DNA of 64,000 nucleotides from an uncultured Acidobacteriaceae bacterium (GTDB lineage: Bacteria; Acidobacteriota; Terriglobia; Terriglobales; Acidobacteriaceae), in NCBI GenBank assembly GCA_963800565.1, contig CAWDBM010000008.1:308111-372110 (forward strand), read 5' to 3'. The number at the start of each line of letters is the position of its first letter. Positions within the stretch are counted from its first letter, which is position 1. The position numbers and the translations under genes were made by a program. Below are positions 18,972-22,499 of the stretch, piece by piece. The notes under the pieces were generated by a model that did no database searches, was not told the DNA's origin, and was given only the letters and a program-made list of their open reading frames with translations.

Positions 18972-20033
18972 GTGTCGCTACGAGTGCCAGATCCCGTCCG
19001 CCTTCGCGAGATATTTTCGGCTTTGGGATTTGTCACCAGTTGCCCGCGCATGACGCCCGTCCTCCAATGCGCTTATAAAGCGGCGCAGGTGAGCGATACG
19101 ACCGTGCTGTTACAGGGCGAAACCGGAACCGGGAAACAGGTTCTCGCCCGCGCTATCCATAGCCTGGATGAAAAGCGTCGCCGGTTCGCATTCGTTACCG
19201 TTCATTGCAGTACGATCACCGAAAGCCTGGCCGAGAGCGAACTCTTCGGCCACCGCAAAGGGTCGTTTTCAGGCGCCTTCGCCTCGCGCGCGGGACTATT
19301 CCAGGCAGCAGACCGGGGAACGATTTTCCTAGATGATGTGAACGATCTGCCACTCCGTCTGCAGCCCAAGCTGCTCGACGTCCTGCAACGCGGCATGATT
19401 CGGCCGCTCGGCTCGGATCGAGAGTTGCACGTGGATGTGCGTGTCATCGCCGCCGCCAACCGGCCGCTCGAGCCCTTGGTGAAAGAAGGAAATTTTCGCG
19501 CGGATCTATTCCACCGCCTGAATGTCATCAAGATGTCGCTCCTTCCGCTGCGAGAACGCTGCGAAGACTTCGCCGCTCTGGTCCTGGAATTCGCCAGGCG
19601 TTATGCCAATCTGCACGAACAGATCGAGTCGCTCGAACCCGAACTGGTCCAACACCTGCAAGCGTGCCCCTTTGAGGGAAATGTCCGCGAGCTGGAAAAT
19701 GCGGTGCAGCGCATGTTGTTTATAAAGAATGAAGGCAATTCGCTGACCCGGGAGGATTGGCTTCAGCAGGAGAAAGAATCGACGGCCGACGCGGCCGAGC
19801 GGGATGATTTGCTGCAGGCGGCAAATCTGCTGTGGGTCGTGATGTTGCGGCAAGAATTGCCCTTCCCCGACCTGATGCGGCGGCTGGAAGGTGAACTGCT
19901 GCAAAGAGCGCTACAAGTTGGCGGCAAGACGCGCCGCGAGATTGCCAAGTTGCTGCACACCAGCGAACGCACGCTTTATCACAAGATCAGCGCGCATGGG
20001 TTCAGCGCCAGCCCCAGGCGAGCGGCGGGTTGA
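18972..20033 (+). CDS. sigma-54-dependent transcriptional activator (bEBP) lacking an N-terminal sensory/receiver domain
   Basis: GTG start. The AAA+ core begins about 25 aa in: Walker A GETGTGKQVLARAIH, GSFSGA (GAFTGA-loop variant), Walker B IFLDDV, and ELENAV. C-terminal Fis-type HTH is TRREIAKLLHTSERTLYHKI. Confidence 0.9.
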   Translation: MSLRVPDPVRLREIFSALGFVTSCPRMTPVLQCAYKAAQVSDTTVLLQGETGTGKQVLARAIHSLDEKRRRFAFVTVHCSTITESLAESELFGHRKGSFSGAFASRAGLFQAADRGTIFLDDVNDLPLRLQPKLLDVLQRGMIRPLGSDRELHVDVRVIAAANRPLEPLVKEGNFRADLFHRLNVIKMSLLPLRERCEDFAALVLEFARRYANLHEQIESLEPELVQHLQACPFEGNVRELENAVQRMLFIKNEGNSLTREDWLQQEKESTADAAERDDLLQAANLLWVVMLRQELPFPDLMRRLEGELLQRALQVGGKTRREIAKLLHTSERTLYHKISAHGFSASPRRAAG

Positions 20034-20085
20034 GAGCCTGTCTAATCCTGCATAACGTTCGATTTTGGCTCATGGTGCATAAGTC

Positions 20086-20101
20086 TGGCGAATAACTTGC
20101 A
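20086..20101 (+). promoter_or_regulatory. candidate sigma-54 promoter upstream of the first DUF4157 cargo gene
   Basis: TGGCGAATAACTTGCA has TGGC at -24 (GG 20087-20088) and TTGCA at -12 (GC 20099-20100) with exact 12-nt register. It lies 46-61 nt upstream of the CDS. Confidence 0.6.
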
Positions 20102-20146
20102 AGACCCGCAGAGCGCTAGCCGAATCTAAGTTTGAGGTTTTGCGGA

Positions 20147-22249
20147 ATGTTCTCGCGCGTCTCCATTGTTAAGGAGTCTGCTGGCAAAATCGGGAAACCT
20201 CTATCGCGTCCCAAGCCTGCGCATGAGTATTTCTCTGCAGAGGAAACACCGGAATCTGGATTGTCTTCGCTGGCATACAGTTTGGCGGGGATTAATCTCT
20301 TTGCGCCGGGCGAAAACGGTGGCTCCAATTTCGTGTCCCGGTGCGCGCGCGTGCCCTGGCCGATGCAGGCGAAATTGCAAATCGGAGCGGTTGACGATCC
20401 ACTGGAAGCGGAGGCGGACCAAACTGCAGACCGTGTGATGCGCATAGCGGACCCGCCTGCAGCTCCACTCCGCATGACTTCAACCGCAGGTCAATTGCAG
20501 CGGAAGTGTTCCTGCGGTGGTTCTGGAAGCTCGGGCGGCGAGTGCAAGGAATGCCAGGAAAAACGTGAAGAAAAACAACTCCAGCGGAAAGCCAGTGCGA
20601 GCGCTCCCGTAAATGCAGTGCCGGACGCGGTCGGCAACGTTCTGCGCTCTCCCGGCCAGCCACTCGATACGGCGACACGAAATTACTTCGAGCCGCGACT
20701 GGCCTGGGATCTCAGCAACGTCAGGGTACACACCGATGCGCGCGCAGCAGACTCGGCGCGCCGCGTGAACGCACTCGCCTACACGGTCGGCAACAATGTG
20801 GTCTTCGGCAGCGGCCAATACTCACCTCGGACGGATTCCGGCAAACGTCTCATCGCCCATGAACTGGCGCACACGGTGCAGCAAGCATCTGGTTCGCACC
20901 TGCGATTGCAGCGGGCGGTCAGCAAAGACATCGCGAAAATCGAGAAATTGCTGAGCCGGAGTTTGTTCGATTGGGCAATTACCGACAGCGACGCGCATCA
21001 GGTGCTGGTGCTACTGAAAGCCCTACCAGCAGCTGATCTTAAAGACACGGTTGCTGAGATGGAAAAGGGCGGATATATCGGCAGGTTGTTCGACAACGTC
21101 AGCGATGAGGATCAGGCGAACGAAACCGCAATCCTGGAGAGCATTAATGATGTCCGGGTTCACAAAGGCGGAAAAAACCAAAAGGATACAGTGGGCTCGT
21201 GCGACCAATCGCAAAGGAACGAGATCGATACGCGAGTGAGCAAGACTCAAGAGTGGGCGGCCAAAGCGAAAGACCGCGTCAAGGAGTTCGCGGCCGATCC
21301 AGCGAAGCACGCCGATACCCTCACGATGCTTGACCGGCAATTTTTCCATTCGAAGAAAAATGGACAACTCTCCGAAGTAGACCAGAAAACCAATGCTAAC
21401 CAGATCGCCGACAATTTCCAGCTCGCTGAAAAGCAGATCAATCCGAAGCAGAACGAGTGCGCTAGTCCCTTTGATTCGGAGTGCGCGGCCTTGGCGCTTG
21501 CATACTGGAGAGAGGGCAAGAGGATTGTGCTGTGCAAGTCTTATTTCGGTAGTCCTTTTGAGACGCAGGTCTACAACCTTCTCCATGAATTCATGCATGA
21601 ATACGCACATGTAAACGACCGCGGCTACGGTGACGAGCGCGTTTTCGAATACCTGAGCCCCAAAGATGCGATCAACAATGCAGATTCTTACGCTCTGTTT
21701 GCCGTCGATGTGAACGCCCATACAACAACCTCACGGGAGCAACGGCCAGCACATTCCGAAGACAACATCTCCGATTGCGGCCCTCAAAAAGAGGAGGTGC
21801 GGCGCAGCTTTGCCTTCGCCAGCCGTATGATCATCAATGCACTCAACGCTCTCGGAGATTCGAATAGCACAGGCTTGTTCGAACAAACCCACTTCAAGAC
21901 GAAGGACAGGAATAAGTTACAGCGGTTCATCGAGCGTTGCCAGAAAATCGACAAGAAGTTTAGGGAAATGAACTTTCAGTGCGAGAAAAAGTGCAAGGGA
22001 AATACGCCTGGCTATTGGCGCACTTGGGGTTCGACAGTGCACCTCTGTCCTCCATGGTTCGGCATAGCGAACGCAAATGACCGCATCGATGAGATTCTCC
22101 TCATCGCGATTTCTGAAGAACTCTCACTCGACTACGGCCCAGAGGTCGGCAGCACCGCGTACACGAAACAGACTGAAGATCAAGCCTTTAAAAACACTAC
22201 TTCCTTCGTTGGATACGCTCGCGCCGTGACCAACCAGTGGTGGCCTTAA
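20147..22249 (+). CDS. DUF4157-domain protein with C-terminal aspzincin (M35-like) metalloprotease domain; putative eCIS cargo/toxin
   Basis: DUF4157 core GQPLDTATRNYFEPRLAWDLSNVRVHTD...AYTVGNNVVFG...LIAHELAHTVQQ (HELAH at 20858-20872). C-terminal HEFMHEYAHVNDRGYG (21584-) plus NADSYALFA fits the HExxH + DxxYG aspzincin pattern. ATG 20147 follows gagg; TTG 20132 is the alternative. Confidence 0.85.
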   Translation: MFSRVSIVKESAGKIGKPLSRPKPAHEYFSAEETPESGLSSLAYSLAGINLFAPGENGGSNFVSRCARVPWPMQAKLQIGAVDDPLEAEADQTADRVMRIADPPAAPLRMTSTAGQLQRKCSCGGSGSSGGECKECQEKREEKQLQRKASASAPVNAVPDAVGNVLRSPGQPLDTATRNYFEPRLAWDLSNVRVHTDARAADSARRVNALAYTVGNNVVFGSGQYSPRTDSGKRLIAHELAHTVQQASGSHLRLQRAVSKDIAKIEKLLSRSLFDWAITDSDAHQVLVLLKALPAADLKDTVAEMEKGGYIGRLFDNVSDEDQANETAILESINDVRVHKGGKNQKDTVGSCDQSQRNEIDTRVSKTQEWAAKAKDRVKEFAADPAKHADTLTMLDRQFFHSKKNGQLSEVDQKTNANQIADNFQLAEKQINPKQNECASPFDSECAALALAYWREGKRIVLCKSYFGSPFETQVYNLLHEFMHEYAHVNDRGYGDERVFEYLSPKDAINNADSYALFAVDVNAHTTTSREQRPAHSEDNISDCGPQKEEVRRSFAFASRMIINALNALGDSNSTGLFEQTHFKTKDRNKLQRFIERCQKIDKKFREMNFQCEKKCKGNTPGYWRTWGSTVHLCPPWFGIANANDRIDEILLIAISEELSLDYGPEVGSTAYTKQTEDQAFKNTTSFVGYARAVTNQWWP

Positions 22250-22483
22250 AGCACACGGAACGACGCAGTGTTCCCGAAATCATTCATCACGCCTCAACCC
22301 GCCTCTGCTTCAACACTGCCAATTCCTGCATAACTTGATGCCTACTCTTGCATGGCGAAAATCACATTATGTCCCCGCCAAAATTCCCTCCACCAGCCCG
22401 TTAGTAACTCAACAGCCCCGCTCCCATAGCGTTCCGCCGAATCCAGTCACCCTTGTCCCCGCAAGTCGCGGGTCCACGACATC

Positions 22484-22499
22484 TGGAATCCCAATTGCC
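22484..22499 (+). promoter_or_regulatory. candidate sigma-54 promoter upstream of the sheath operon
   Basis: TGGAATCCCAATTGCC has GG at 22485-22486 and TTGC with GC at 22497-22498, in correct register. About 25 nt upstream of ATG 22524 and 350 nt upstream of the sheath gene. Confidence 0.45.

Follow-up and report, generated by a model that had tools for sequence, protein, structure and literature searches.

A 64,000-nucleotide stretch of contig CAWDBM010000008.1 from an uncultured Acidobacteriaceae bacterium (hereafter the window) carries at 20147-48557 what is, judging by its gene content, a complete extracellular contractile injection system (eCIS) of the Afp/PVC-like class, and upstream of it a gene (18972-20033, + strand) for a bacterial enhancer-binding protein (bEBP) that has no sensor domain. 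We consider it highly probable that this eCIS is wired to sigma-54 through its own dedicated bEBP, a reading that was supported in silico by all comparative tests run. The support comes from the conserved gene order in related loci, from -24/-12 elements at fixed positions, from palindromes at enhancer distance from these elements and from the contrasting sigma-70-type promoter of the bEBP gene itself. The wiring had already been proposed in a sequence-only reading of the window and is supported by synteny, conserved promoters and palindromes; the palindromes, a promoter cassette for each cargo gene, the sigma-70-type promoter and a variant Walker B motif are additions to that reading.

In the mechanism that we propose, the bEBP gene would be transcribed from its sigma-70-type promoter and the C-terminal helix-turn-helix (HTH) of the protein would bind the sequence CTGCMA-N4-TKGCAG, present either as a single palindrome or as a pair two helical turns apart. 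From these sites, ~110-165 bp upstream of the -24/-12 promoters, the bEBP would act as an ATP-driven AAA+ ring and remodel closed sigma-54 holoenzyme complexes at two promoters, P1 for a cargo toxin gene and P2 for a 79-aa gene, the sheath, the tube and the remaining particle. Toxin and injector would be co-produced, and solely when active bEBP is present, and in relatives each additional cargo gene would come with its own palindrome and -24/-12 cassette. We infer binding of the palindromes by the bEBP, use of the promoters by sigma-54 holoenzyme and an activator function for the protein, as opposed to an inactive state.

The putative activator gene and its place at the eCIS

The bEBP gene starts with GTG and encodes 353 aa, and 353 aa is also the median length of its 120 best homologues. 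According to Pfam, the protein consists of a Sigma54_activat domain (PF00158; residues 23-188, E 1.3e-57, profile positions 4-167 of 168), an AAA_lid_14 domain (residues 194-273) and a C-terminal HTH, which has weak matches to HTH_23 and HTH_28 (residues 306-340) and aligns with the HTH_8 region of a second, canonical bEBP from the same window. The scan found no REC, GAF, PAS or V4R domain, so that the architecture given in the sequence-only reading, an AAA+ core plus HTH only, stands. The open reading frame (ORF) begins at the first start codon after an in-frame stop and has no upstream extension, and since this stop directly precedes the ORF start, a hidden N-terminal sensor domain is impossible. 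Homologues number in the thousands in the databases; the 120 closest have identities of 71-86% and come without exception from Acidobacteriota, including Candidatus Koribacter versatilis Ellin345.

The association of this gene with the eCIS was assessed in six long contigs retrieved via bEBP homologues and in 25 genome loci whose bEBPs have identities of 54-82%. In every locus with enough downstream sequence (~25 distinct ones), the gene order is bEBP, zero to three eCIS_core cargo genes, 79-aa ORF, sheath and tube. What precedes the bEBP gene is unrelated from one locus to the next, with formate dehydrogenase, HypF, two-component genes and hydrolases among the examples. As the downstream order is constant while the upstream flanks are not, the bEBP gene is part of the eCIS module. 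Starting from the small ORF gave the same picture, with all three loci retrieved via its homologues carrying the bEBP, in divergent orientation in one of them. Taken together, the bEBP and the same eCIS occur side by side in ~28 acidobacterial loci.

Two loci with bEBPs 75-82% identical to that of the window, L009 and L012, come from metagenome-assembled genomes labelled Candidatus Binatia, all other loci being Acidobacteriota; these labels could reflect mis-binning or horizontal transfer. In two long-read-derived loci, L037 (5018-12351) and L038 (8578-17824), the sheath, cap and ATPase genes are fragmented, which could be due either to a decaying eCIS or to assembly frameshifts. In L038, the cargo genes are moreover separated from the small ORF by an IS110 transposase.

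Within the bEBP, the Walker A motif (GETGTGK, 19116-19136, + strand) and the motifs RVIAAAN, FRADLFHRLN and GNVRELEN are present, sensor and arginine-finger motifs among them. The recognition helix of the HTH, TSERTLYHK (19959-19985, + strand), is conserved together with the palindrome across the bEBP family. Two other motifs deviate from the classical form. The sigma-54 contact (L1) loop at residues 97-102 (nt 19260-19277, ELFGHRKGSFSGA) reads GSFSGA in place of GAFTGA, as had been pointed out from the sequence alone; GSFSGA is kept in 116 of the 120 closest homologues, and distant eCIS-linked members have GAFSGA, GAFTGA or GAYSGA. Seen across this series, the loop is one that has drifted stepwise under selection, with the aromatic residue retained. 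In the Walker B motif (IFLDD, 19323-19337, + strand), Asp replaces the catalytic Glu, and DD instead of DE is found in at least 103 of the 120 homologues.

The canonical bEBP of the window (59844-61214, - strand; REC, AAA+ and HTH_8) has the loop GAFTGA and a Walker B motif ending in DE, and we therefore regard the GSFSGA and DD variants as specific to the eCIS lineage. Its gene has a 4-nt overlap with the end of a histidine kinase gene (HAMP/HisKA/HATPase, 61211-62902; the region as a whole is 59844-62902, - strand), and the occurrence of such a GAFTGA protein is indirect evidence that the organism uses sigma-54.

A different interpretation of the two variant motifs is that the eCIS bEBP works independently of sigma-54, either as a repressor or as a sigma-70 activator comparable to TyrR, Rhodobacter NtrC or FleQ, so that its loop and Walker B motif drifted, the palindromes are ordinary operators and the TGG-N8-TTGC elements described below are something else. 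While the variants themselves, the presence of FleQ among the closest solved cores and the failure to locate rpoN in the window or in the related DNA searched would all fit such a regulator, the loop Phe/Tyr is kept family-wide, in a graded series leading to GAFTGA. Furthermore, each of the single loop variants, GSFTGA and GAFSGA, is found among Desulfovibrio vulgaris enhancer-binding proteins with assigned regulons, in a study that counted both among the variations expected to retain transcription activation (PMC4641369), and the PspF variant E108D is functional, acting on duplex DNA as the wild type does but with a lowered ATPase activity (PMC4132715).

Predicted promoters and palindromes upstream of the cargo and particle genes

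Two intergenic elements on the + strand fit TGG-N8-TTGC with GG and GC in the canonical register: P1 (TGGCGAATAACTTGCA, 20086-20101), the putative -24/-12 promoter of cargo gene 1 with a predicted start at ~20112, and P2 (TGGAATCCCAATTGCC, 22484-22499), the putative -24/-12 promoter of the structural operon with a predicted start at ~22510. Both had been recognised in the sequence-only reading, which was right about their position, orientation and register and about the genes that follow them. Two gene starts are corrected here. Cargo gene 1 (20147-22249, + strand) begins with the ATG at 20147 and not with the TTG at 20132, which follows from the 700-aa call in L034 and from an alignment with L009; its 700-aa product has eCIS_core (DUF4157), Tse3_N-like and M35 aspzincin metalloprotease matches in Pfam. 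The 79-aa ORF, which is conserved in relatives and is the first gene of the P2 operon, extends from 22524 to 22763 (+ strand) and not from 22335 to 22763.

A Gibbs sampler with no sigma-54 prior, applied to 22 loci over the 120 nt that precede the small ORF, recovered TGG-N8-NTGC in all of them (with CGG in one), 34-56 nt before the start of the small ORF and with flanking bases that are not conserved. The held-out loci L037-L039 also have the P2-type element and the palindrome layout. P1 aligns with the orthologous TGGCGCGTCACTTGCA (L009) and TGGCGCACTACTTGCA (L012), and P1 equivalents follow the first palindrome in L001, L003, L005, L006, L008, L015, L016 and L018. For the P2 transcript, we infer a short leader with a conserved AAGG; Rfam detected no RNA family anywhere in the window. 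An ECF-type (extracytoplasmic function sigma factor) promoter at P2 was rejected, given that GGAAC is present in some copies only and is not conserved, that TGG and TGC are conserved and that no conserved -10 follows.

Side-by-side comparison of the intergenic regions brought out the 16-bp palindrome CTGCMA-N4-TKGCAG as a candidate upstream activator site. A search allowing three mismatches was too permissive and gave way to an iterated weight matrix, with which 425 kb of related DNA were scanned. High-scoring palindromes are found almost only within ~100 nt after the bEBP stop or upstream of cargo genes and the small ORF, and those before cargo genes or the small ORF are usually paired, 21-22 bp apart. 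In the window, a degenerate copy (CTGTCTAATCCTGCAT, 20038-20053; score 13.0) begins 5 nt after the bEBP stop and aligns with CTGCCAATTCTTGCGT and CTGCCAACTCTTGCAC of L009 and L012; the orthologous sites just after the bEBP stop score 20-25 in most related loci. Ahead of P2, there is a pair 22 bp apart, of which the distal palindrome (CTGCCAATTCCTGCAT, 22316-22331) scores 21.3, the highest value in the window, and lies 168 nt upstream of P2, and the proximal one (ATGCCTACTCTTGCAT, 22338-22353) scores 14.6 and lies 146 nt upstream; being palindromic, the three sites are given without strand. The weight-matrix scan found no further strong palindrome inside the rest of the operon (25021-48557).

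Palindromes and promoters are also associated by distance. TGG-N8-NTGC occurs 56-176 nt downstream on the + strand for 26 of the 38 palindrome clusters (binomial P 1.5e-22), compared with 3-4 of 38 in mirrored or upstream control intervals and a chance expectation of 0.065 per interval. The usual distance from the proximal palindrome to TGG is ~110-165 nt, which is the classical enhancer range, and L003 and L006 have a separate palindrome and promoter cassette for every cargo gene.

The bEBP gene, in contrast, is preceded by a putative sigma-70-type promoter, TTGACA-17 nt-CATAGT (18848-18876, + strand; 10/12 consensus match), with a predicted leader of ~95 nt to the start codon, and a TTGACA-N17-CATAGT/CATATT block is found upstream of the bEBP gene in at least ten related loci. 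In the window, the same consensus scan gave no sigma-70-like promoter for either of the eCIS intergenic regions. Autoregulation of the bEBP is not indicated, with no consistent palindrome upstream of its gene. The ~1.1 kb before the bEBP gene (17827-18971) contain no Pfam-recognisable gene, and a 121-aa ORF on the minus strand (18352-18717) has no match.

Several observations weigh against the sigma-54 wiring. Within the window, TGG-N8-TTGC has 15 matches compared with 10.6 +/- 3.4 expected, which is within chance, and the significance of P1 and P2 therefore rests only on their conservation in related loci; the looser GG-N10-GC is uninformative (894 matches, 876 expected). On a generic and approximate sigma-54 weight matrix, based on the published consensus, the two sites rank ~4th and ~44th in the window, P2 has a low score (8.3-8.4 bits) and many equal or better matches lie inside genes. 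For 12 of the 38 palindrome clusters there is no promoter in the tested interval, some of these clusters being chance matches and some having a longer spacing. At P1, the palindrome is degenerate and just 48 nt upstream: compared with L009 (7089-7230), ~110 nt have apparently been lost between the first palindrome and P1 (20054-20085 in the window), and because of this loss P1 may be weaker or less well served than P2. Lastly, no RpoN box turned up when the window and the 425 kb of related DNA were searched, and the literature searched gave no report on the double L1 variant GSFSGA and no experimental test of it in combination with DD in Walker B.

The chance-level motif count and the many matrix matches within genes would be expected if the adjacency of the bEBP gene and the eCIS were incidental, i.e. 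if the bEBP controlled other genes and the two window motifs had arisen by chance. Set against the synteny in ~28 loci with unrelated upstream flanks and the conservation of P1 and P2 at orthologous positions, this is extremely improbable. We also regard sigma-54-independence of the bEBP as improbable, if less so, since the sole conserved block before the operon has an invariant GG and GC exactly 10 nt apart, the signature of sigma-54, and lies at enhancer distance from the palindromes, and since the eCIS intergenic regions have no -35/-10 consensus. Wiring of the eCIS to sigma-54 thus accounts best for the conserved elements.

Possible control of the activator and the 79-aa protein

Given the lack of a sensor domain, the amount of bEBP made is the most likely level of control, with a protein partner as the alternative. 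Control by dosage would be consistent with the gene having its own promoter and with its start codons, which, as called, are TTG or GTG and not ATG in 11 of the 14 orthologues examined (among loci L001-L039); such starts may keep activator levels low.

The candidate for a protein partner is the 79-aa protein. Its ORF has 369-471 homologues that are 70-90% identical, and it is found in every locus that carries the bEBP, the most distant included, with a 31%-identical copy in L031. It is better conserved than the sheath (e.g. 77% versus 43% in L008) and is the first gene behind P2. This raises the possibility that the bEBP, while acting through sigma-54, is restrained by an antagonist from its own regulon, in a negative feedback like that of PspA on PspF or HrpV on HrpS. 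Another eCIS has a similar arrangement: in Leptothrix cholodnii, Lcho_3032, with 360 aa and only Sigma54_activat and HTH_8 domains and therefore also sensor-less, is followed at the head of the eCIS by a 71-aa ORF (Lcho_3033), Afp16, sheath and tube (Geller et al. supplement, PMC8213781). This betaproteobacterial locus has a different gene order, with the cap gene first and the sheath and tube duplicated.

The anti-activator proposed in the sequence-only reading is so far not supported, and an antagonist of this kind is rather unlikely. The 79-aa protein resembles neither PspA nor HrpV in sequence or structure and has no sequence match in Pfam, NCBIfam or PDB, and its AlphaFold model, with a mean predicted local distance difference test (pLDDT) score of 54.6, is too low in confidence to use. 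The 120 matches listed in a profile search for distant relatives are all close ones. It is a candidate partner of the bEBP, but it could equally well have a small structural or assembly role in this eCIS lineage. With the same reserve, we suggest that it might act on the bEBP as an anti-activator or co-factor of a novel kind, the two forming a feedback switch by which the share of cells making the eCIS is set, and that the pair might be a portable control unit across phyla, of which Lcho_3032/3033 would be an example. Control through the amount of bEBP remains the option that we favour.

Precedents and other genes of the window

To our knowledge, the way in which an eCIS is switched on is not known for nearly all of the thousands of environmental loci, most of which are silent in culture. 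The regulators described for eCIS are RfaH-like (AnfA1), GerE/LuxR-type and BTAD proteins (Geller et al. 2021, PMC8213781); RfaH, GerE and BTAD are named again in a 2026 review. As with the bEBP, the genes of these regulators adjoin the eCIS operon and each is presumed to be a master switch; the difference is that they act by anti-termination or sigma-70 activation, whereas here an enhancer-dependent sigma-54 promoter appears to be used. In the literature searched, we found no link of sigma-54 to eCIS control apart from one table entry: the supplementary tables of Geller et al. list Sigma54_activat, without discussion, as a ‘shell’ eCIS domain with 49 occurrences and 1.59-fold enrichment (p 0.04; PMC8213781). 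In supplementary file 3 of that study, Ellin345 is flagged FALSE, and if the column stands for ‘has eCIS’, then the Ellin345 locus (L001) was missed by that survey.

The sequence-only reading had called the wiring a new regulatory mode. This holds for the eCIS literature searched but not for contractile injection systems as a whole, where type VI secretion system (T6SS) control by sigma-54 and a cluster-encoded bEBP is established (Bernard et al. 2011). In Vibrio cholerae, VasH activates the hcp operons, of which vgrG2 is also a part (Dong and Mekalanos 2012, PMC3439928). The predicted arrangement resembles that of VasH in that a bEBP gene within a contractile-injection cluster would activate the -24/-12 promoters of the cluster. 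It differs in that the genes here encode an extracellular phage-tail-like particle (Pvc16 cap, AAA+ ATPase, DUF4157 cargo) of Acidobacteriota and in that structural operon and cargo both appear to be under bEBP control. VasH has an N-terminal regulatory region, whereas the eCIS bEBP has no N-terminal domain. Enhancer-dependent control of a contractile injection system is already known from T6SS and would be new for eCIS and for Acidobacteriota.

The earlier comparison of the bEBP with PspF and HrpR/HrpS is valid for the sensor-less architecture and does not extend to family membership. No NCBIfam equivalog cutoff is reached: the PspF models TIGR02974 and NF008622 give 197.9 bits (cutoff 443.55) and 159.1 (cutoff 529), respectively, and the RtcR model gives 267 against a cutoff of 650. 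A PDB search places the FleQ and NtrC1 cores closer to the bEBP than that of PspF. There is a single bEBP gene at the eCIS in the window and in all related loci, with no adjacent HrpR/HrpS-like paralogue pair. On these scores and gene counts, the bEBP is PspF-like in architecture only and is neither a PspF orthologue nor a member of an HrpR/HrpS-type pair.

With PspF (~325 aa, compared with 353 aa here) it shares an AAA+ core and HTH without a sensor domain and, as predicted here, the binding of upstream sites to activate a sigma-54 promoter. It differs in its loop, its Walker B motif and its failure to reach the PspF cutoffs, and also in that no PspA-like gene or domain was found among the ~60 window ORFs scanned. 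HrpR and HrpS of Pseudomonas syringae are likewise sensor-less bEBPs that turn on a secretion or injection apparatus, and they are antagonised by the small protein HrpV. They are, however, two paralogues that act as a hetero-hexamer on one promoter (hrpL) in a sigma-factor cascade, whereas the eCIS bEBP appears to be single and to act directly on several cluster promoters.

If the wiring is as proposed, expression of the bEBP might turn on both particle and toxin, for instance in the cultured Koribacter versatilis Ellin345, which has the same locus layout (CP000360.1, ~1.07-1.09 Mb). The palindrome plus -24/-12 cassette would mark which of the neighbouring genes are cargo. Enhancer-dependent promoters are tightly off without their activator, a property that would be fitting for a machine that presumably kills the producer cell on release. 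More generally, the link between sigma-54 and injection systems, known for T6SS and the type III secretion system, would be extended to phage-tail-like particles.

The assignment of the eCIS to the Afp/PVC-like class follows from Pfam matches, within 20147-42226, to sheath, tube, spike, gp25, Baseplate_J, the Pvc16/Afp16 cap, an Afp15-type AAA+ ATPase and DUF4157 cargo. All genes of the system are on the + strand. The 79-aa ORF is followed by the sheath gene (22850-24475; Phage_sheath_1, Phage_sheath_1C), the tube gene (24488-25018; Phage_T4_gp19) and the tightly packed rest of the operon (25021-48557), in which Pfam identifies the Pvc16_N cap (at 26420), the AAA+ ATPase (27694), a second eCIS_core cargo (29825), a tube-like protein (32154), a LysM protein (32813), the spike (34094), gp25 (35286), two Baseplate_J proteins (35678 and 39284) and a DUF6519/beta-helix protein (44491). 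The sole large gap of the operon, between spike and gp25, is occupied by a Cys/Gly-rich ORF of 106 aa (34939-35259), which we read tentatively as PAAR-like or DUF4280-like from its sequence alone. A promoter-like match at 35034 (GGGCATGCCGATTGCG), also between spike and gp25, falls inside this ORF and was rejected.

Downstream of the eCIS, intergenic TGG-N8-TTGC matches are also present at 58300-58314 and 58220-58234, in the gap 57976-58368, one facing a GCV_H-like gene (58368) and one an Fpg-like gene (57976). Both are ~1.5 kb away from where the NtrC-type bEBP gene has its 3' end, and they could be chance matches. Far upstream, the region 1915-10339 encodes type IV pilus or type II secretion system-like proteins (a pilin with an N_methyl motif, T2SSF and a T2SSE/MshEN ATPase), an ABC transporter and LolA, which are unrelated to the eCIS.

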